Positions 767 through 32,700 of a DNA stretch of 43,652 bases are shown here, piece by piece (the first letter of the stretch is position 1; each line of letters begins with the position of its first letter). The translations under genes were made by a program, and so were the position numbers. The notes beneath the pieces were generated by a model, which ran no database searches, was not told where the DNA came from, and was given only the letters and a program-made list of their open reading frames with translations. This DNA is from a virus (lineage: Duplodnaviria > Heunggongvirae > Uroviricota > Caudoviricetes), in IMG/VR virus record IMGVR_UViG_2617270938_000005, positions 1-43,652 of that record. One strand, written 5' to 3'.

Positions 767-2989
767 TTAAAGCTGGATGGAGAAAACGCAAAGGTCGTTA
801 TAGAGAGGCAGGCCGGATAGTGACGTCCCTGTTTGGGAATCTCTGATACACCCGCGCGAACCGGTTACAGGGCCGGGGTTTTGTCCGGCAATCCCCTGGC
901 TTGCATAAGATATCGCCGTCGCAGTGGTAGAATCGGTCTTGGTGATAACTATTTTTGCTGCTGATCCGCTGCCGCTAACGGCTACCGAAGCAATTGTGGC
1001 CCCGGTCAGGACAAAGCCGTAGTTGCCTGGATCGGTAACCCTCGAGGTGTCAATCACGAGATCACCAACACAACCCGCCACTGGTATAGTGATTGTGGTT
1101 CCTGACTGCACAACACCAGACTCTATCGGCACAAGCGCGGATTTTGTATTGTCATTCAGCCACCCACCAACCACCGCGCCAATAACTTCGCCTTCTGTCC
1201 GATACCCTGCGCTGGTCAGATGCTCACCGTCTGAATACGGGCGGGCATACTGTGCGCTGGCAAGATGGATTAATGCGTTATCACGGGCTTCCTGATATTG
1301 TGCGATACCGATGTTATTAGTTTTGGTCGAACCGGCAGTTCCGCCGTATGGAATGGTATTAGATAACTGGCCTACAAACATGTGAAGCGACTGGCTTTTT
1401 CCTGTTGCCGCGTTAATGACAGACTCATACTGAGCACGGAGAGTCTCCATTGCGGCGCGATAACTGGATATAGATGTGCCTGCTGCTGCATTCTGGTTGC
1501 CGTGGATAAGCACCATTACGGGAACATACTGCATACCCAACTTTTCAGCCATGGCTACAGCTGACTGAATCATTTTCGTTGCACCAGTAAAAGTCGCTGA
1601 ACCGGATGAAATGTCTGCGATTGCAGTACCGGATGAGCACGCATCGGAAACCAGAACCGTATGCCCGGTGAGATCATGAATTTTAAACGCCATACCGCTT
1701 GATGGCGACTCCTGTCCAGGCCGCGTCCCAGCATTCTCCCGGCATGGGATGACAGCCTCAAGGAGCGATTCATTCAGCGTGTCATACTTAAAATCGACTT
1801 TCGGGCCGGTCTCAAACGAGAGTATGCCGTAATCTGCCTGCGCTGTTGTCGTTACAGGGCTTTGTGCTTGCGTTGAACCGCCTGCAGCAAGAGACTGACC
1901 AGTTATAATCAGGTGAATAAGAAAGCGCAATGACTCTCGCGCCCGGTAATTCCCGTCATAAGTGGATCGATAAGTGATGTAGTTGCCGCTGACATTCGAC
2001 AAATAACGCAAAAATTCCGCATATGCCACTGGCGCAATATTTGAAACTCCGGAGTCGTTCGTGATCTGAGTTACATCGCTGCCATCTACCGCAATGATAT
2101 TTCCATCAACTGAAGCAACCATTGGGAATTCAGAGGCGTCATCATCAGGTGTGTCATCGCCCACCTGCTCCACGGTACCATCTGTGCGAACTCGCCGAAA
2201 AATTCTCCCCTGTCCGTCCATATGTATTTCAGAATAGTCACTGACACTGTCATCATCAGCAAACCACGTGGTCAGGCTGCCATGTGTCAGATTGCCAAGG
2301 GCAGAAATGTTAAATATTTCTTCACCAGTGGCGCGCATCTGGCAGACAAATCCTCCACCTGCAATTTGCACAAGCTCAATCCCTGAACCAATCATCAATG
2401 CCGGAAACTGGCTCGTGCCATCGGTATAACGGCGATAAACGGCATGCCCTACACTATCAAGAATGAGCTCAGCAATATCTGGGTATGCATCGGTAGTCTG
2501 AGCAGCACCGAAAGCCATAATTTTCGCCAGTTCAGTGGCAACCAAATCTCTCAGCGCGTCAACATATCCAGCAGAAATCATCCTGCGACCGGTTGGCTGC
2601 AACGTTCCGCCAACGTTCATGACCTCGATCGCGAGGGCGCTGTCATCCGGGCTGCGATAATAAGTAGTGCTCCCCTCGGGGATATTAGCAATATCTGCCT
2701 GTGCCGCGGCCAGTGTCATATACTGCCGGCTGAGAGGGATCAGGTTCTGCCTGGTTTCCTCAACTACAGCATCCCTTTCTTCTTGCGAGGTTTCAAAGTC
2801 TGCTTGCTGCTGCGTTAGCTGGTTGTCCGCCTTAACATTAACGCCATGCAAAGTATCTAACTGTTCGCCCGTGCGTGTGGTAATGGTTTCATCACTGCTA
2901 TTAACGAACTTGTCAATAGACTGCATATTATCCCATGCATCAGGCATGGATGCAGACGGCACAGGATTGCCGGTATCGTATTCACTCAT
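767..2989 (-). CDS. tailspike/tail fibre protein with putative esterase-like domain
   Basis: 740-aa ORF at end of tail module; central motif LIITGQSLAAGGS resembles the GQS(N) block of SGNH/sialate O-acetylesterase-type hydrolases. Confidence 0.5.
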   Translation of the reverse strand: MSEYDTGNPVPSASMPDAWDNMQSIDKFVNSSDETITTRTGEQLDTLHGVNVKADNQLTQQQADFETSQEERDAVVEETRQNLIPLSRQYMTLAAAQADIANIPEGSTTYYRSPDDSALAIEVMNVGGTLQPTGRRMISAGYVDALRDLVATELAKIMAFGAAQTTDAYPDIAELILDSVGHAVYRRYTDGTSQFPALMIGSGIELVQIAGGGFVCQMRATGEEIFNISALGNLTHGSLTTWFADDDSVSDYSEIHMDGQGRIFRRVRTDGTVEQVGDDTPDDDASEFPMVASVDGNIIAVDGSDVTQITNDSGVSNIAPVAYAEFLRYLSNVSGNYITYRSTYDGNYRARESLRFLIHLIITGQSLAAGGSTQAQSPVTTTAQADYGILSFETGPKVDFKYDTLNESLLEAVIPCRENAGTRPGQESPSSGMAFKIHDLTGHTVLVSDACSSGTAIADISSGSATFTGATKMIQSAVAMAEKLGMQYVPVMVLIHGNQNAAAGTSISSYRAAMETLRAQYESVINAATGKSQSLHMFVGQLSNTIPYGGTAGSTKTNNIGIAQYQEARDNALIHLASAQYARPYSDGEHLTSAGYRTEGEVIGAVVGGWLNDNTKSALVPIESGVVQSGTTITIPVAGCVGDLVIDTSRVTDPGNYGFVLTGATIASVAVSGSGSAAKIVITKTDSTTATAISYASQGIAGQNPGPVTGSRGCIRDSQTGTSLSGLPLYNDLCVFSIQL

Positions 2990-4887: not shown

Positions 4888-6080
4888 GAGACCACCAGAT
4901 TAATATTGCTGACGGCGCAGGATGCTGACTGGTCAAAGGCAATATCCACGTTTGCCGCGGCTACGCCACCGGCAGACGTCCCGATCAGCAACTCGGTAAT
5001 GTCGTAATACCTGGCATTACCACCACTGACAACACCAAGGTTAGCCGGTGAGTAAACGCGACTGAGAAGAACGCTGGCGCCGATTGCCAGTGAGTTAATG
5101 TAGGCAGATACAGCCGCCTTTATCTCTTCGCCAACCTGGGATGTGTAGCCCGTAAGAGGTTCGATAGTGATTTTGACGTAAATGGGTACATCGACCGGCC
5201 TTGAAAAACCTACCGGGTGAGGGTTTCCGTACTTATCAGGCACAACAATCACCGTACTACCGTAGGGTGTTACGCCCTGCCCTTTCACACCACGAATGCT
5301 GTTTGCAATGACCGTCGCATCACCACCTTCTACAATGGCGGCGATTGAGTGCGGAGGCAGGCCATTTGCATCAGTGGTATCTGTATCGTTCTCATACAGC
5401 TTGTGTCGCGTTACGCCGCTGATATTTGCTATCGCGCCATCTACCGCCTCAAACGGCGTCAGAGACGGTAAAGCAACGCTCTGTGATTGCCGGACACGCA
5501 ATTCAGCATTTGTTTCGGCAGCAACGCCTACCGTAGCCGCTTGCGGGTTAGTTACTGATACCCAACCACGTGTCGGGGTGTTTATCTTATTGACTGCCCC
5601 GGCAGGGGCCGCCACAGCGCCAGCAACAGAACACGTCGCTGTAGCAATAACCGTCCCATCAATACCAATTGTCACCTGAGCAGGAAGATTCCAGATGATG
5701 CCGTTGGCATCTTTCACAGAGCCGTTTGTGATTAACGTTCCGGCCTCACCTTCGATCAGCTCATCGACCGTAGAATTTGTCGCAGCCCGGCGAGCGATGC
5801 CGTTAATTTTGACGTTACTGGTTAATGCATCGTCCAGCGCCGTCGACGGAGAAAATGACCGGTAAACAGAAATGGCCGTGTTGTTGGCATCATGAATGGC
5901 CAGAGCCACCAGAGCGACCATCTGGCCGTCTTTGCTGTCCGGGTCGAGATAGGCATCACTGCCATAAATCTGCTGAAAATAGCTAATCAGGGTGCTGAGT
6001 ATCGTCTGATAATCAGGCGCACTTATCCCCTCAGCGGTTACCGTTGCCGATAAGCCGAGTGTGTCGAGGTCCAGAGCCAT
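4884..6080 (-). CDS. baseplate J-like protein
   Basis: 398-aa ORF in baseplate position; size and position as in Mu/P2-type baseplates. Confidence 0.55.
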   Translation of the reverse strand: MALDLDTLGLSATVTAEGISAPDYQTILSTLISYFQQIYGSDAYLDPDSKDGQMVALVALAIHDANNTAISVYRSFSPSTALDDALTSNVKINGIARRAATNSTVDELIEGEAGTLITNGSVKDANGIIWNLPAQVTIGIDGTVIATATCSVAGAVAAPAGAVNKINTPTRGWVSVTNPQAATVGVAAETNAELRVRQSQSVALPSLTPFEAVDGAIANISGVTRHKLYENDTDTTDANGLPPHSIAAIVEGGDATVIANSIRGVKGQGVTPYGSTVIVVPDKYGNPHPVGFSRPVDVPIYVKITIEPLTGYTSQVGEEIKAAVSAYINSLAIGASVLLSRVYSPANLGVVSGGNARYYDITELLIGTSAGGVAAANVDIAFDQSASCAVSNINLVVS

Positions 6081-6436
6081 TACGCCTCCGAAGTTACTGT
6101 GGTTGTCCCGTAGATGGTTTCCACCGTTGCTGTGAACGTTACACGGCGCGTGGTACCGTCAACGGTGGTGTTAAATGCAGTGATTGAGCTAACCCCCTGC
6201 GTTTCTAGGATCCGCTTACGGATAGCGAGGTTGTAGGTATCCGGCCTTTGCTTACCCAGAACGGACTGAATCCATGGCGTACCTTCTGTGGTGTCCAGAA
6301 ACCACTGACCGTACCAGAGCAGGAAGCGCGTTTTAATGGCCTGCGCTACAGCCTCGGGTGAGTTAACCAGCCAGGTATCATCGCCCTGACCGAAGGTGTA
6401 ATCCCCATCGTCATCTTCTCGACGGTATCGCATATC
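6080..6436 (-). CDS. baseplate protein (gpW/gp25-like)
   Basis: Small ORF between V-like and J-like genes; start taken at internal Met abutting upstream gene. Confidence 0.4.
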   Translation of the reverse strand, partial: DMRYRREDDDGDYTFGQGDDTWLVNSPEAVAQAIKTRFLLWYGQWFLDTTEGTPWIQSVLGKQRPDTYNLAIRKRILETQGVSSITAFNTTVDGTTRRVTFTATVETIYGTTTVTSEA

Positions 6437-7088
6437 ATCCTCCGAGTGGTGCTGTACTGCTGCCACCAGGCTCAACGCCACCATGCGTATGCTTATCAAC
6501 GATTGAGCCATCCACCAGTTGCAGGCGGCCGTCCGAGAGAATTTTAAGCCCGTTCAGGTTAAAACCTCCCGGCGCCGTGCCGTTGATAGCTCCACTGGCA
6601 GGATTAAGGCTCAACTTTGTTTCCCCGTCATCACTGCGCAGCTCTACCGCACTGGTGCTGATACCGCCGATTTTCTTCGCCTGCGACTGCGGGCCGACAA
6701 TGCAGAAGGCATCGGATAAATCATGCATGCGCTCGTCTACTGGCTCCTGAATACCTCCACTTTGCCACCAGAAATCAATACAGCGGTCTGCAAAGATAAC
6801 AAGGCATTCATCACCAGGCTTAACAGGAAAAGTCAGCGTACAGCCTCCGCCACGAGGGAAAACGACAGGAACGTCCACCAGCAGTGGGAGGTTTACCGAT
6901 ACCTGGGTGCCGGATTCGTCCTTCTCTGCGCCTTTAATGGCTGGCTGAACAACAGCGGTGACAGCATCCGGATCAAACGACTGGACGATGCCGGGCATAG
7001 AAACACGCAGCGCCGACATGACAGAGCCAGCAAGTCTTACATCGGCCTGTTCTTTGTTACCAAGTTGAGCGCTTAAAGAAACTGGCAT
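6435..7088 (-). CDS. baseplate assembly protein V-like (spike)
   Basis: 217-aa ORF, position and Gly-rich C-terminus consistent with gpV-type spike. Confidence 0.45.
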   Translation of the reverse strand: MPVSLSAQLGNKEQADVRLAGSVMSALRVSMPGIVQSFDPDAVTAVVQPAIKGAEKDESGTQVSVNLPLLVDVPVVFPRGGGCTLTFPVKPGDECLVIFADRCIDFWWQSGGIQEPVDERMHDLSDAFCIVGPQSQAKKIGGISTSAVELRSDDGETKLSLNPASGAINGTAPGGFNLNGLKILSDGRLQLVDGSIVDKHTHGGVEPGGSSTAPLGG

Positions 7089-7104
7089 TCATATGTCTCC
7101 AGAA

Positions 7105-7130
7105 AGTAAAAAACCCAGCCGAAGCTGGGT
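7105..7130 (-). terminator. rho-independent terminator after ant
   Basis: Hairpin ACCCAGC-CGAA-GCTGGGT with T-run on minus strand (plus A-run 7108-7113). Confidence 0.6.
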
Positions 7131-7148
7131 TGTCGCGTTGGTTATCTG

Positions 7149-8063
7149 TCAGTAGTTATGTACTGAAGGAGGTAATTCTTTATTCTTAAGTCTCATCCAT
7201 GCGGAAAGATTCGCTGGTCCGTCTGGCTCATTGATATCAACATCTCGTGTGTGATTGATTAAAACGTCTCTCGCCATTCCGATAACATACGAGAATTCAT
7301 GACCGTAGTCGTAGCATCTGCCGGAATAGTTCGATTGAATTTGTTTTAATGCCGGATACAGTTCGCGGAATAATGCCTGTGAACGGTTGGCATAATCCCA
7401 TAACCATACAAGGCTGTTTGCTTCTTTTGCAGAAAACTCGTTTGCTTTCTTCTCTTGTTTGCCAATGAACTCACCTTCAAGTGGAACTCGAGCTGCAAGT
7501 GACAGTGCTTCTGTAAACTGCTCCTCACTGATTTCTTTGTATGAACATCCAAAATGGGATTTCAGTGACGACCACATGGTGATCATCGCCTTCGCCTGTT
7601 TTTCTTTTGGCAGAGACTGACCGCGACTCATGACGAGTTGTTTAATAGCTTCCTGCTGTTCAGTGGTGATTTTACCAGGCAACGCCTTTTTAGCTTTCGG
7701 TGTATTTCCGTAAGACCCCGTTTTACGAATGGATGGCAAAACTTCAGCTGTTACCCATTTGCGGAATTTGTGCGGGACTGAACCTTTATTGACGGCATCA
7801 CGGCAGCGCAGAACCAATGTATACATACCTGATTCGCTCACAATGCTTAAATTCTGCTCACCACCAAGGGTGTAACTTAAAGTTACTCCCTTCTCATCGT
7901 CATCAAGTGCAGTAAGCGCCTTGCGTGAGTTAGTCAGGGCTAAAGCATCACAAACATCTTTTGCTACAAACCACGGCTCACCGCACTTGTTGATGACGCG
8001 GATTTCACTGTCGCCGAATTTGAAGATGGTGAAATCGTTTTGTGCCTTTGCTATACTTTTCAT
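7149..8063 (-). CDS. ant: antirepressor (Bro-N domain)
   Basis: N-terminal [16 protein letters not shown]...[11 protein letters not shown] matches Bro-N/antirepressor N-domain (cf. P22 Ant). Confidence 0.75.
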
Positions 8064-8095
8064 GTCAATATTTCCCGATCAGATTTGTTGATGTA

Positions 8096-8136
8096 GAAGC
8101 CTCGCCAGTTCCCGCTGTCGGGGCTTCGTTATTTTT
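8096..8136 (+). terminator. hairpin plus T-run in arc-ant spacer (possible sar-like antisense RNA terminator)
   Basis: GAAGCC...CCCG-CTGT-CGGG...GGCTTC hairpin followed by GTTATTTTT on plus strand; no plus-strand gene upstream. Confidence 0.35.
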
Positions 8137-8296
8137 AGAGAGCATTCCGCATTTTCTCCCGGTACTTCAACCACCAAGCTAATCCTTGAACCAACACTGA
8201 GTTTTCTGACATTCCCTCTTCCTCTGCAATGCGCTTAACTTCTTCCTTAAAGCGGTACGGGTAGCGAAGAGTTGTCTTTACTTCATTCTTTTCCAT
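8135..8296 (-). CDS. arc: Arc-like ribbon-helix-helix regulator
   Basis: 53-aa ORF (same length as P22 Arc) with AAGGAG RBS, immediately upstream of ant, divergent from mnt-like gene. Confidence 0.5.
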   Translation of the reverse strand: MEKNEVKTTLRYPYRFKEEVKRIAEEEGMSENSVLVQGLAWWLKYREKMRNAL

Positions 8297-8318
8297 GCTG
8301 TCTCCTTATTTCATAATG

Positions 8319-8333
8319 AAGGCAAATTGCCTT
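8319..8333. promoter_or_regulatory. 15-bp palindromic operator AAGGCAA-A-TTGCCTT in divergent arc/mnt promoter region
   Basis: Perfect inverted repeat between TTGACT (-35, minus strand) and the arc start. Confidence 0.5.
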
Positions 8334-8352
8334 TAGAGTCAATTTACCATGA

Positions 8353-8382
8353 TTGCACATGAAGTCAAGTTGCCTCTACAAT
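8353..8382 (+). promoter_or_regulatory. candidate sigma70 promoter for mnt-like gene
   Basis: TTGCAC - 18 nt - TACAAT, about 20 nt upstream of RBS GAGGTGA and ATG 8404. Confidence 0.45.
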
Positions 8383-8403
8383 GATTTTTATTTGAGGTGA
8401 GTT

Positions 8404-8727
8404 ATGTCAGAAAAATTTCCCAGCCAAATGCAAGACAAGTTCACCGTGAGGTTTCCTGACGGATTGCGCGATGCTATAGCTGAACGAGCTAAACGTAATG
8501 GCAGATCAATGAACTCAGAGATTGTGCAGATACTGGAAGATGCCTTGAATGCAGAAAATACTCTTGGGGAAATAGCAGATAAAATTAACAGCGTCTCGGT
8601 TCCGCTAAATGTTGATGCGCTAGTTCAACTTCAAGCCCAGGTTATCGCCATGCAAAAAGAAATACAGGAAAAGTTCAGAGAGCAGAACGAAAAGTTGAGA
8701 GAACTGCTAAACAAAAAACCCACCTGA
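8404..8727 (+). CDS. mnt: Mnt-like repressor (RHH)
   Basis: RNGRSMNSEIVQILEDAL closely matches P22 Mnt ANGRSMNSELLQIVQDAL. Confidence 0.7.
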   Translation: MSEKFPSQMQDKFTVRFPDGLRDAIAERAKRNGRSMNSEIVQILEDALNAENTLGEIADKINSVSVPLNVDALVQLQAQVIAMQKEIQEKFREQNEKLRELLNKKPT

Positions 8728-8734
8728 CGGTGGG
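8711..8734 (-). terminator. rho-independent terminator (mainly minus strand)
   Basis: CCCACC-TGAC-GGTGGG hairpin with T-run on minus strand (plus A-run 8713-8718), after the 8752 gene stop and overlapping mnt stop. Confidence 0.6.
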
Positions 8735-8751
8735 TTACGGAGAGGGCAAGA

Positions 8752-9087
8752 TCATTTAACCTTTCGGCAATCGTACGTCCAAAATTCCCGAGGCTCGTCC
8801 ATATTTTTGCGGATAACTTCAACGTTGAGGATCGCTTTTTTGTTTCGTTTGATGTAGTCCATACCTAACCAACGTCCAGTATTAGGATCAGGTAACATCC
8901 ATTGCATCATGACGTTATCGAAATCGTCTTTTTGTTTCAAAAAGGTCATTTTTTGTGTTTCTGGCTTTTGACCATTGATGTGCATGAGGCCATCATTGCC
9001 AGCATCAAAGCGGAATGGTCCGCACTGCGTTGCCGCCGAAACGGTTAACGGCAGGGCCAAGAATAAACAAAAAAATACTTTTTTCAC
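8752..9087 (-). CDS. small secreted protein (signal peptide), moron-like
   Basis: MKKVFFCLFLALPLTVSA-A signal peptide with AXA cleavage site; ATGA start/stop overlap with upstream tail gene. Confidence 0.5.
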   Translation of the reverse strand: MKKVFFCLFLALPLTVSAATQCGPFRFDAGNDGLMHINGQKPETQKMTFLKQKDDFDNVMMQWMLPDPNTGRWLGMDYIKRNKKAILNVEVIRKNMDEPREFWTYDCRKVK

Positions 9088-10121
9088 TCTACATCTCCGA
9101 CTTTGTCCAAAGTGCCTTTTGCCAATAGTTCTTTGCCACCTTTAGCCAGGCAAAGCAGGTCCATATACCACGCCTGCCCGCGAGTATCGCCAGTATAGTC
9201 AATGCTGCCGACAATGTAATCACCATCGGTATTGATTGCCGCCAGCTGCGACCCGGGAAGCCCATCGACATAGATGTTACCGTCTGTGGTACTTTCGCCT
9301 AAGATACCTGGTGACTGGCCAACCTGGTCATTACCGAGAGCCTGACGATATACAGAGGCCTGATCCAGCCTGATAAGCCCACCAAGCTTAATATTCGGGT
9401 TTATCAGACAGCGCACATTTACCCCGGCGCCCATCGTCTGCTGAGGCATACCGATCAGGCCCGTATTGGCGTTCAGTACAATCGCTTCCTGTATGTACTT
9501 ATCATCAGGAACAATATGCACCTGGTTGTTTTCGTACCACCAATTAGCCTTACATTGCCCTGCAAGGCTGTACATCAGGCGTCCAGTGTTCTGATAAATA
9601 GTGCGGCCGCGGGGGAATACAGTTGGACCAAAATCCGGCCTGCTTCCCTCTGTAATGCCATAAGGGCTAAGGGACTGCATACCCAAATCAAACAGGTCAG
9701 CATGCTTCCAGCCTGCCGATACTGTCGTTTTCACGCTGGCGTTGAGATGCCCCTCCCAGCCATCAATACACTGGATGAGCACCCAACTATCGGTGACGTT
9801 ATCTTTTCCGGTAACGGTAAAGCGAATATCACCGTTAAAGATGATCCCCACATTTTTATCAGGATAGTTACCACTGCTGTCTGCTGTGCCGTTATACCCG
9901 GCAATAGCCCTTACACGAGTAAACTCTTTACCCATGATCCGGTTTTGTGTCTCCGGCGACAGATTGTAGATTTTGAAGTTACCCACGAATCCGTTAAAGA
10001 TAGTCGCGGGCATCTTCTGGATATTAAACGTCACCTTAAAATCCGACAGCGAAACACCATCACCCTTGTCGTCAATAAGCTGCAGCTCAAAGTGCCGCAT
10101 CCAGTTCTGAGACATAATCAC
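9084..10121 (-). CDS. tail/baseplate hub protein (putative)
   Basis: 345-aa ORF in baseplate position downstream of tape measure region. Confidence 0.4.
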   Translation of the reverse strand: MIMSQNWMRHFELQLIDDKGDGVSLSDFKVTFNIQKMPATIFNGFVGNFKIYNLSPETQNRIMGKEFTRVRAIAGYNGTADSSGNYPDKNVGIIFNGDIRFTVTGKDNVTDSWVLIQCIDGWEGHLNASVKTTVSAGWKHADLFDLGMQSLSPYGITEGSRPDFGPTVFPRGRTIYQNTGRLMYSLAGQCKANWWYENNQVHIVPDDKYIQEAIVLNANTGLIGMPQQTMGAGVNVRCLINPNIKLGGLIRLDQASVYRQALGNDQVGQSPGILGESTTDGNIYVDGLPGSQLAAINTDGDYIVGSIDYTGDTRGQAWYMDLLCLAKGGKELLAKGTLDKVGDVE

Positions 10122-15852: not shown

Positions 15853-16149
15853 ACGTCACACGATAATCTCGCCCGCGGTAGGTTACGATATCGGCATCTA
15901 ATCCGGGTTGCCCCTGAGTCAGCCTGAACTGCGTCACGATGAGAATGGCCCCGTTGATGTTCTGTCCGGCGGCCATACGCTTCGCTTCCAGTGAACGGTC
16001 GACGGTTACGACACCAGAGAACGGAATAGCCTGCGCGGTATTGGTCGGAAAATTATCTTCGTCCACTGTCTGCACCTGTCGATAACACACCAGAGACAGG
16101 TCGACAAAGTCCGGATCAAGCAGAACATCCGTCACATCGAGAAACGGCA

Positions 16150-26499: not shown

Positions 26500-26575
26500 T
26501 GGTGCTGTTTAACGGACTTGAACCGCTACCCATTCGCTTACAAGGCGACCGCTCTACCATTGGAGCTAAAACAGC
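26500..26575 (-). tRNA. tRNA, anticodon UGU (Thr)
   Basis: Manual cloverleaf: acceptor GCTGTTT/AAACAGC, D-stem GCTC/GAGC with GG, anticodon loop CTTGTAA, T-loop TTCAAGT, encoded ACCA 3' end. Confidence 0.65.
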
Positions 26576-26580
26576 ATGTT

Positions 26581-26655
26581 TGGCGGGACAGCGTGGACTC
26601 GAACCACGATAAGAAGGTTAACAGCCTTCCGTAATCACCTTTATACGACTGACCC
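26581..26655 (-). tRNA. tRNA-like, anticodon GUU (Asn), with stem mismatches
   Basis: Anticodon arm GAAGG-CTGTTAA-CCTTC, T-arm CGTGG-TTCGAGT-CCACG, CCA end; one T-T mismatch each in acceptor and D stems. Confidence 0.5.
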
Positions 26656-26711: not shown

Positions 26712-26741
26712 ATTATGGCTAAATGGATAATTGCATGTCAA
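26712..26741 (-). promoter_or_regulatory. late promoter pR'-like
   Basis: Minus strand TTGACA - 18 nt - CATAAT overlapping the 3' end of Q. Confidence 0.55.
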
Positions 26742-27237
26742 GGCCTTTAACAGCAACATGCTTAACTTTCTCAACACGTTTACGCATTTTGAAAGCATTT
26801 TGCATTGGCTGGTACAAAACAAATAACGACGCTTTCAGGATGTCGTCAATTTCGTTTCTACAGGTTGCCAGTGAAGGTTTTCTCCATCCCTCGCCACCAC
26901 GTCCACACATCTTGCGTGGCTTTGCAGTCGCGTGATAGTAGGATGCAATTGCTCGCTTAGATGAACCATGAGCGTAGTAGCTGAGGAGGATGCCAAAGGC
27001 TTTCTTGTCAATGTACATGACGGAATCGACGACCTGAGAAATCAACATTCCATCATCATCATTACACATTGGCCTTGTCATAACTCTTCCCGGCTCTACG
27101 CTCTCCATGAACTTCGCTATTACGCTGCTCATGCGCTTTTCCAGGCGGCCTGAATAAACCCATGCGCCCCACAGTTCAAGCCATCCATTCAGCCAATCGT
27201 GCTGTTCTTTGGTGAGGTTTAGTTCTCTTATACCCAT
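26719..27237 (-). CDS. Q: antitermination protein Q (phage 21/82-type family)
   Basis: Position upstream of lysis genes; [10 protein letters not shown] motif resembles the WGAW motif of Q82-type antiterminators. Confidence 0.65.
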
Positions 27238-31703: not shown

Positions 31704-31714
31704 GGCTCCGCTTA

Positions 31715-31930
31715 TTAAGCGGCTTTGTGTTCCGGCGGGAACACGTCATCAAGACTTACTTTTGCGCCTAACTTATTTAGGCACGCAACAAGAGCACGGC
31801 ATGTTTTAAGGTCTGGGAAGCGACGACCAGATTCCCAATGTCCGATAGCTCCCTGTGTGCATCCAACTGCCTTAGCAAGTGTTGTTTGAGAGATATTCAG
31901 TGACTCTCGATATTTTCGTAGGTTGCTCAT
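31715..31930 (-). CDS. cro: Cro repressor (HTH)
   Basis: 71-aa HTH protein divergent from cI; start at MSNLRKYRESL with GGAGGG RBS. Confidence 0.8.
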   Translation of the reverse strand: MSNLRKYRESLNISQTTLAKAVGCTQGAIGHWESGRRFPDLKTCRALVACLNKLGAKVSLDDVFPPEHKAA

Positions 31931-32040
31931 ATGCCCTCCATAGTAACCTCGAATAAAAAATACAATATGTACTTTCCAAATACAAGCAAAAATACACATT
32001 GTGCATGGATGGTTCCAGTACAGAGCGTAATAATAAGGAC
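31931..32040. promoter_or_regulatory. oR/pR/pRM region with TACAnnnnTGT-type operator repeats
   Basis: Repeats tacaatatgtact (31961-31973) and tacacattgtg (31993-32003); related sites in oL; candidate pR TTGTAT-17-TATTTT on minus strand. Confidence 0.5.
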
Positions 32041-32700
32041 ATGAAAATGAAATGGTATGAACTGGCTAGATCCAGAATGAAAGAGCTCGGCATAACTCAA
32101 GAGAAGTTAGCCGAAGAGCTAGGTATGACGCAGGGTGGGATTGGACACTGGTTGCGCGGATCTCGTCATCCATCTCTTAGTGATATTGGTGTGGTGTTTA
32201 AATACCTTGGTATTGATAACATATCATTCAACCACGACGGGACATTTTCACCTGTTGGCGAATACTCATCGGCCCCAGTTAAAAAACAATATGAGTACCC
32301 TGTATTTTCTCATGTTCAGGCTGGGATGTTCTCTCCAGAACTCAGAACCTTTACCAAAGGCGATGCGGAGAGATTGGTAAGCACAACCAAAAAAGCCAGT
32401 GACTCTGCATTCTGGCTTGAGGTTGAAGGTAACTCAATGACCGCACCAACAGGTTCCAAACCCAGTTTTCCTGACGGGATGTTAATTCTGGTTGACCCTG
32501 AGCAAGCTGTTGAGCCCGGCGATTTCTGCATAGCCAGACTTGGTGGTGATGAATTTACCTTCAAGAAACTGATCAGGGATAGCGGTCAGGTGTTTCTACA
32601 GCCACTAAACCCACAATACCCAATAATCCCATGCAATGAGAGTTGTTCCGTTGTGGGGAAAGTTATCGCTAGTCAGTGGCCTGAAGAGACGTTTGGGTGA
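32041..32700 (+). CDS. cI: CI repressor (HTH_XRE plus S24 LexA-like peptidase domain)
   Basis: N-terminal HTH; AG cleavage site; GNSM ... FKKL Ser/Lys dyad. Confidence 0.9.

Follow-up and report, generated by a model that had tools for sequence, protein, structure and literature searches.

A probable P22-type immI cassette, with a sar-like antisense RNA candidate, in the tail gene cluster of a lambdoid myovirus prophage

The IMG/VR record IMGVR_UViG_2617270938_000005 (Caudoviricetes; 43,652 nucleotides (nt), analyzed at full length and called the window below) is a whole lambdoid-regulated temperate prophage of the myovirus type. It is likely that its positions 7102-8736, between the baseplate-hub side and the spike gene, constitute a complete and intact immunity I (immI) cassette of the type of phage P22, or "ant moron", with the regulatory circuit proposed below. 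The immunity I region of P22 was reportedly described by Sauer and co-workers in 1983. An earlier interpretation made without database searches (the sequence-only reading) had proposed an immI-like second immunity island here. The gene order and orientation are identical to those of the annotated P22 immI (mnt - Pmnt/Pant with Omnt and Oarc - arc - sar - ant - t_ant). As in P22, the cassette lies within the late structural operon and ant is co-directional with it. The ant moron of P22-like phages has been described as an insert of high flux within their late operon (Villafane et al. 2008, PMC2629481). This cassette type is already known, and it has been annotated automatically and piecemeal in Shiga toxin (Stx) phages and Escherichia coli genomes. 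The differences from the known examples are the type of host phage, the insertion site, the Bro-N Ant chimera, the C-terminus of Mnt, the GGC-N5-GCC operators, and the triad shared by both repressors. The sar-like antisense RNA is an element that the sequence-only reading missed.

The cassette contains three protein-coding genes. The open reading frames (ORFs), Pfam, and PHROG agree with the sequence-only reading on all of them: an antirepressor gene with a Bro-N domain, a 53-amino-acid (aa) ribbon-helix-helix (RHH) gene just upstream, and a divergent Mnt-like gene. The ant gene (7149-8063, minus strand) encodes a 304-aa protein with the Pfam domains Bro-N (5.7e-20) and P22AR_C (2.2e-29). Residues 1-288 match PHROG 245, "anti-repressor Ant", at 1e-110. 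The Pant operon begins with the arc-like gene (8135-8296, minus strand), which is separated from ant by 71 nt. The product of this gene is equal in length to P22 Arc and has a match at 3.8e-10 to PHROG 582, "Arc-like repressor". Directly upstream of ant, the operon thus has a small RHH gene of the Arc type. The mnt-like gene (8404-8727, plus strand) encodes a 107-aa protein that contains RNGRSMNSEIVQILEDAL and the Pfam Arc domain (1.5e-18). The alignment to the P22 proteins, which had been suggested as a check, gave matches for all three. Identity is 61% over 190 aa for Ant (BLASTP, E 1e-79; the C-terminal two-thirds only), 41% over 29 aa for the Arc-like protein (the RHH core), and 51% over 37 aa for the Mnt-like protein.

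The last ~115 aa of Ant are ~85-90% identical to P22 Ant, and the N-terminal 110 aa are Bro-N and not homologous to the N-domain of P22 Ant. Judged from these alignments, Ant is a chimera in three parts: Bro-N, a linker common with the Ant of Stx phages, and P22AR_C. The foreign N-terminus leaves room for another interpretation, in which the protein is a DNA-binding regulator or other effector that shares P22AR_C but is not an antirepressor, and the RHH genes control another function. The PDB sequence search with Ant gave no match, and the architecture Bro-N plus P22AR_C has no solved structure by this search and no biochemical study. Against this interpretation stand the PHROG 245 match and the C-terminal identity to P22 Ant, with the limit that family names are annotations. 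The full P22-type control is also kept, including a sar aimed at the ribosome-binding site of ant. It is therefore improbable that Ant has another function, and from homology and anatomy it would act as an antirepressor of CI/C2-type repressors.

The best matches of the Arc-like protein in PDB are Arc variants. Those of the Mnt-like protein are AmrZ (3e-9), Mnt (1MNT; 2.7e-6), and Arc (5e-4). In alignments, both RHH proteins show the N-terminal beta-strand and two helices with the G-x-S/T/N turn (NGRSMNSE and EGMSENS). The reading triad of the Arc-like protein is K7/T9/R11, aligned on Q9/N11/R13 of P22 Arc. That of the Mnt-like protein is K12/T14/R16, aligned on H6/N8/R10 of Mnt and K18/V20/R22 of AmrZ. 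In P22, the triads Q-N-R of Arc and H-N-R of Mnt differ and bind different operators, whereas both RHH proteins of the window have K-T-R.

Among solved structures, the Mnt-like protein is nearest in sequence to the Arc-family RHH tetramer AmrZ of Pseudomonas aeruginosa (PDB 3QOQ), and the beta-strand DKFVVRLPEGMR is aligned to DKFTVRFPDGLR in this comparison. K18/V20/R22 of AmrZ read two 5'-GGC half-sites in GGC-AAAAC-GCC (PMC3325190). The palindrome in the control region of the cassette (site C, below), GGC-AAATT-GCC, has the same geometry and spacing. AmrZ differs in being a chromosomal global regulator, in having Val instead of Thr as the central triad residue, and in its C-terminal domain, which is not comparable. 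The AlphaFold2 (AF2) model of the Mnt-like monomer, predicted from a single sequence, has helices at 21-31, 38-63, and 70-103, the last with a local predicted local distance difference test (pLDDT) score of ~86 in an otherwise low-confidence model. A scan with Mnt over one genome per species returned distant relatives only, in Xenorhabdus, Yersinia, Citrobacter, Erwinia, and others. The scan showed relatives apparently spread across Enterobacterales.

The divergent spacer between mnt and arc is 107 bp long and contains three GGC-type sites and candidate back-to-back promoters. Site C is the perfect palindrome AAGGCAA-A-TTGCCTT with the core GGC-N5-GCC, at exactly the positions given in the sequence-only reading (8319-8333). 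It covers about +1 to +15 of Pant and would be the analogue of Omnt. There are six palindromes of the 7+(0/1)+7 type in the window, so ~0.015 are expected in a 107-bp spacer, and GGC[AT]5GCC occurs once in the window. Another of the six, the 7-1-7 palindrome CCGCTTATTAAGCGG, lies at 31708-31722 over the stop codon of a Cro-like gene.

Candidate Pant (8341-8368, minus strand) consists of TTGACT (8368-8363), a 16-nt spacer, and the extended -10 TGgTAAATT (8346-8341), with a predicted start at ~8334. The gap between the predicted -10 and the palindrome is 6 nt in both phages, which bears out the earlier claim that the palindrome is placed like Omnt. The direct repeats AGTCAAnTTnCC of the sequence-only reading do exist. 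On the minus strand they are GGCAACTTGAC (site A, 8364-8374) and GGTAAATTGAC (site B, 8338-8348), and they are better described as degenerate copies of site C, which hold the -35 and overlap the -10 of Pant, respectively. Candidate Pmnt (8354-8382, plus strand; TGCACA-17-TACAAT, 9/12 consensus) overlaps Pant back to back, with site A in its spacer and a predicted start at ~8389. The predicted overlap of the two promoters is smaller than in P22. The promoter scan recovered both annotated promoters of P22, Pant and Pmnt. As in P22, the divergent promoters overlap and a symmetric operator lies where Pant starts; binding is predicted from this anatomy.

The operators of the window are of the GGC-N5-GCC type, while those of P22 are AGGTCCACGGTGGACCT (Omnt) and TAGA-type (Oarc). 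A separate P22-like Oarc with TAGA half-sites was considered and rejected. The TAGAG/CTCTA sequences flanking sites A and C are extensions of the GGC-type half-site (TAGAGGCAA in the relative L065), and no distinct Arc operator is definable in the spacer from the operators of the window and its relatives. Control of ant by LexA, as in antirepressors of the Gifsy and SPC32H type, was also rejected; no CTGT-N8-ACAG with up to one mismatch was found in or near the island.

The comparative set, composed of 80 IMG/VR loci fetched with the Mnt protein and several annotated E. coli and phage loci, showed that the operators vary together with Mnt. In the close classes, the Mnt bodies are near-identical from about residue 20, and their N-termini fall into at least five classes. 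The operator sequence varies with the N-terminus class while the rest of Mnt is near-identical. In both the K-T-R and the K-V-R class, the palindrome keeps a distance of 21-23 nt to the start of arc but differs in sequence. The operators of the K-T-R class are AAGGCAATTTGCCTT in the window and TAGAGGCAATTAGCCTCTA in a relative ~81% identical at the nucleotide level. The K-V-R class has GGCATAATGCC with two GGCATATTGCT repeats, and the R-N-R class has TTGGTTCTAGAACCAA and ACCAAGTTGGT, 27 nt from the arc start. The hexamer positions of Pant are preserved in five operator classes, and a -10-like element follows site A in every class. One Arc type is paired with two sets of operators, indicating that the operators track Mnt and not the Arc type. 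Simple linkage is also possible as both genes abut the spacer.

These observations allow a tentative extension, which is possible as a whole but not probable. In such a "single-specificity" immI, the Arc-like and Mnt-like proteins, with the same K-T-R triad, may compete or cooperate on three related GGC-N5-G(C/A)C sites. Specificity may be switched by the swap of a ~170-bp block, comprising the operators and the first ~20 codons of mnt. The late-direction hairpins described below may serve as the ends of a portable unit that is able to enter any late operon under Q antitermination; the unit occurs at four or more tail-gene junctions that are unrelated.

The spacer between arc and ant contains a sar-like gene for an antisense RNA of ~74 nt (8064-8137, plus strand), which is complementary to the ribosome-binding site of ant. 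Its terminator stem (8096-8127) is followed by a T-run. The Rfam model of sar (RF00262) matches 8065-8131 (plus strand) with 28.5 bits (E 0.0068), which does not reach the gathering score of 43 bits. The controls scored 97.8 bits for P22, and 48 and 44.6 bits for two IMG/VR relatives. At the gathering threshold, the Rfam search of the whole window returned two tRNAs only, and sar surfaces only in the E-value mode. A covariance model (R1) was built from 17 different arc-ant spacers of relatives, excluding the window. Over the whole window, R1 gave a single match at 8066-8137 (plus strand), with 51.8 bits and an E-value of ~1.6e-9. Across 18 sequences, all 234 cells of the terminator hairpin are paired (100%), with 29 double (compensatory) changes, and the observed covariation was reached in none of 500 shuffles. 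Many pairs are G-U, which are A-C mismatches on the ant-sense strand; thus, the structure is selected on the antisense transcript. The sar-like sequence of the window folds with -26.4 kcal/mol (z = -4.57).

Candidate Psar (8029-8057, plus strand; GTGAAA-17-TATACT with TG) is inside the first codons of ant. Its predicted start, 8064, is the base beside the ant ATG, and codons 3-5 of ant encode its -10. The annotated Psar of P22 has the same location. The -10 is retained as TATACT, TACAAT, or TATAAT in most copies across unrelated N-domains of Ant. The initial 5-6 ant codons (M-[KNT]-[SI]-[IVL]-A/S/T-K/I; 8052-8063 in the window) are kept in most copies (L003-L086) despite their unrelated N-domains, so that most Ant proteins begin with M-x-S/I-I/V-A. 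The conservation of these codons is apparently due to the Psar -10 that codons 3-5 encode on the opposite strand. The position and the end of the sar-like RNA also correspond to those of P22 sar, which is ~70 nt and ends in a rho-independent terminator at the arc stop codon. The RNA would be expressed and would inhibit the translation of ant. In another locus with a related immI cassette, L081, Rfam sRNA-Xcc1 (RF02221) was found at 1054-1138 (plus strand) with 73.6 bits; it is unrelated to the cassette of the window.

Both ends of the cassette are hairpins. On the left is t_ant, an intrinsic terminator with the structure AACCCAGC-TTCG-GCTGGGTT-TTTTAC (7102-7131, stem 7112-7131, minus strand), 24 nt upstream of the spike start codon. 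It has nearly the same sequence as the annotated ant terminator of P22 at 16012-16035. Window 7108-7481 is 89.6% identical at the nucleotide level to P22 16034-15661. Because this stretch includes the annotated P22 terminator, the left terminator is the native t_ant. On the right is AACCCACC-GTCA-GGTGGGTT-TTTTGTTT (8707-8736, stem 8717-8736, minus strand), with the mnt stop codon in the loop. It is homologous to a hairpin of P22, where AACCCGCCGTCAGGTGGTTTTTTTGT matches AACCCACCGTCAGGTGGGTTTTTTGT of the window. The P22 hairpin with its T-run (NC_002371, L003; 14511-14526) lies over the mnt stop codon in the late direction and has no terminator annotation in the record.

The sequence-only reading had terminators on both flanks delimiting a separate transcription unit. 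Both hairpins are present, but the right one faces the late direction and is no canonical terminator of mnt. The T-run of both hairpins is on the minus strand, the strand of the late operon, and only TTACGG follows the right hairpin on the plus strand of mnt. By this orientation, the right hairpin would be an insulator against late or moron transcription from upstream. Since the operon ends at t_ant, 24 nt ahead of the start codon of the spike gene, the late expression of the spike, baseplate, and fibre genes would need read-through mediated by Q.

The late direction of the two terminators and the position of t_ant could also mean that the cassette is mainly a transcriptional valve, in which the terminators and the nearby RHH proteins set the flow to the spike, baseplate, and fibre genes and Ant is secondary. 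Relatives among Klebsiella phages keep a different terminator at the same spot, and the ant moron of P22 was suggested to set the level of tailspike, although the same authors term this effect possibly accidental (PMC2629481). Relatives cope with unrelated cargo at this junction, and a valve leaves unexplained the elaborate conserved control of ant by two repressors and an antisense RNA. It is thus quite unlikely that regulation of the tail genes is the main role of the cassette.

The circuit proposed for the immI cassette is as follows. In a lysogen, the Mnt-like RHH protein expressed from Pmnt would bind the GGC-N5-GCC palindrome at the Pant start, probably as a tetramer of two dimers, and arc-ant would be silent. 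Where Mnt is absent or lost, as in a fresh infection or the superinfection of another lysogen, Pant would fire and Ant would be made. Ant would bind CI/C2-type repressors non-covalently and block them, with the resident CI as the presumed target. The Arc-like protein from the same transcript would then close Pant, and also Pmnt, via the degenerate operator copies A and B. The sar-like RNA would pair with the ribosome-binding site of ant and block the translation of Ant from residual or late read-through transcripts. Both late-direction hairpins would shield ant from upstream transcription in the lysogen, and during lytic growth, Q-modified polymerase would read through them into the spike, baseplate, and fibre genes. 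Repression and antirepression by these proteins are suggested by their homology to the P22 proteins and by the anatomy of the locus.

Several points weigh against this interpretation. The Pfam Arc score of the Arc-like protein is borderline, 19.2 bits, just below the cut-off of 20.4. The C-terminal half of the Mnt-like protein has no sequence similarity to the tetramerization domain of P22 Mnt and is 24 aa longer than that of P22. Its AF2 model, with an overall pLDDT of 61, is of low confidence and was used for secondary structure only. The promoters of the window have 9/12 consensus, and the scan gave 8 sites in the region against 4.0 +/- 2.1 expected. The assignment of the two RHH proteins to the three sites exceeds what the sequence tells. 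With Bro-N in place of the P22 N-domain, the target recognition of Ant could differ. In phage Kapi1, the expression of mnt from a homologous mnt-arc-ant locus is undetectable in lysogens (PMC12922286), indicating that homologous loci need not behave like P22.

The target of Ant may also lie outside the prophage. The cassette would then be mainly inter-phage, a means of crosstalk or warfare, with the trans action of Ant directed at repressors of other lambdoid prophages, either co-resident or carried by the target cell, and not at its own CI. P22 Ant reportedly acts on several heteroimmune repressors, a finding ascribed to Susskind and Botstein in 1975. The near-identical C-terminal domain of Ant, and whole cassettes, are present in phages with quite different backbones, presumably with differing immC, which points to broad target recognition. 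On the other side, the maintenance of P22 lysogeny requires Mnt (PMC12922286), so P22 Ant does hit its own repressor. The resident CI of the window is a homologue of C2 and thus a plausible target too. A mainly outward role is doubtful, and the inter-phage action is compatible with the proposed circuit.

The resident repressor gene is outside the island. It encodes a CI-type protein with the Pfam domains HTH_3 and peptidase S24 (31999-32700, plus strand), 36% identical over 207 aa to C2 of P22 (E 3e-42). A Cro-like helix-turn-helix gene (31715-31999, minus strand; Pfam) is adjacent. The prophage thus has a conventional immC with CI, Cro, and CII, as well as O and P, by Pfam. With this immC and its C2-like CI, "second immunity region" is an apt name for the cassette. 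The late genes are all on the minus strand, downstream of the gene for a Q-type antiterminator (26719-27237, minus strand; Pfam Phage_antitermQ, 1.3e-25).

The insertion of the island in the tail cluster, claimed in the sequence-only reading, is confirmed by composition and by comparison with relatives. The GC content is 0.41-0.46 over 7100-9100, versus 0.50-0.55 (about 0.53) in the flanking tail genes. The structural half of the prophage is ~94% identical to the temperate myoviruses of Klebsiella P18-100, ST11-VIM1phi8.3, Wanchaivirus PDP110P2, and Mulock. These backbones lack the cassette, and the homology to them ends at 7131 and restarts at 8749. The upstream neighbor is the baseplate-hub gene (10121-9084, minus strand), followed by a 111-aa cargo gene, and the downstream neighbor is the gene for the membrane-puncturing spike (7088-6435, minus strand). 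The site is the hub-spike junction in a Mu/E217-like baseplate cluster, in contrast to the junction of genes 16 and 9 in the P22-like podovirus. Unlike P22, the cassette of the window has neither sieA nor other extra genes.

The hub-spike junction is a hot-spot for cargo. In the nearest phage relatives, other cargo occupies the same junction; in the Klebsiella phage ST11-OXA48phi15.1 (L001, 3029-3817), it encodes a 188-aa protein (PHROG 36675) and a divergent 61-aa ORF. No Pfam domains were found in either, so there is no sign of an analogous regulator. This cargo likewise ends in a late-direction terminator just 5' of the spike gene, unlike t_ant in sequence.

The cassette is present in at least four kinds of unrelated late-gene context: between tail genes L and K of the lambda type (Stx phages, for example 2851), between the hub and spike genes (the window and E. 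coli LWY24), between a baseplate gene and an SLT/tape-measure gene (another prophage of the myovirus type), and beside gene 16 (P22-like phages). All loci diverge directly outside the two hairpins, into at least eight different contexts per side. The cassette has its own promoter and terminator, is present or absent among syntenic phages, and deviates in composition, which makes it a moron in the sense of Hendrix and Juhala. By these comparisons, it has in all likelihood been acquired horizontally as a portable, terminator-bounded insert.

Lambda-like Stx phages, such as 2851 (NC_049943), 1717, and YYZ-2008, carry an ant/arc/mnt cassette in a siphovirus tail cluster, and its ends are the same two hairpins as those of the window. 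These copies are ~93% identical at the nucleotide level to the window over the 3' half of ant with t_ant (7109-7697) and over the mnt body with the hairpin (8434-8734). They differ in a P22_AR_N-type N-domain of Ant, a 57-aa Arc with K-N-R, another Mnt N-terminus, and other operators. For phage 2851 (L002, ~5250-5640), RefSeq annotates Ant and the Arc-like repressor, but not mnt, despite an intact ORF for a 107-aa Mnt-like protein. For Ant of this phage, the annotated start falls within the sar terminator hairpin, upstream of the start that is likely to be the true one (MTSLAIA...).

Degraded ant morons are known from several P22-like phages (PMC2629481), and the cassette of the window could in principle be a decaying, non-functional remnant. 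This is very improbable, and it is largely refuted by the three full-length ORFs, which have good ribosome-binding sites. The control elements are intact as well: operators, promoters, the sar hairpin, and the two terminators. Identical copies are found in several assemblies: DNA 100% identical over 3.5-8.9 kb is present in three other assemblies or sequencing runs, with 8.9 kb in GCA_000700385.1. Of 5,426 complete E. coli genomes, about 1,165 have a match to some part of this region, and the same cassette at ~92% identity is found in many E. coli genomes.

The distribution indicates that the P22 immI circuit is not limited to P22-like podoviruses, since the 1.6-kb cassette enters tail clusters of siphoviruses and myoviruses across Enterobacterales. 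In annotations, the 53-aa gene frequently appears as "hypothetical", a call for the mnt-like gene is at times missing, and the sar-like RNA is below the Rfam threshold. Such cassettes are candidate routes for the SOS-independent induction and cross-induction of co-resident prophages, including Stx phages. The natural variants of the Mnt N-terminus and the operators are a ready data set for the rules of RHH recognition.

The 111-aa ORF at 8752-9087 (minus strand), between the hub gene and the cassette, has a signal-peptide-like N-terminus (MKKVFFCLFLALPLTVSA...), low GC, and a match to PHROG 3443 (unknown function). It is also present in the Klebsiella phage relatives (~80% identical at the nucleotide level) and looks like a separate moron of the backbone. 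Downstream of the cassette, a 143-aa ORF (6080-6511, minus strand) overlaps the spike gene by 77 nt. The same gene is called as 117 aa (Sheath_initiator) in public contigs that are 100% or 99.4% identical, and thus its true start is probably near 6433. Two tRNA genes (Thr-TGT and Asn-GTT; 26500-26655, minus strand) are located between the gene for the Q antiterminator and those for lysis, a position where Stx-type lambdoid phages also have tRNAs.

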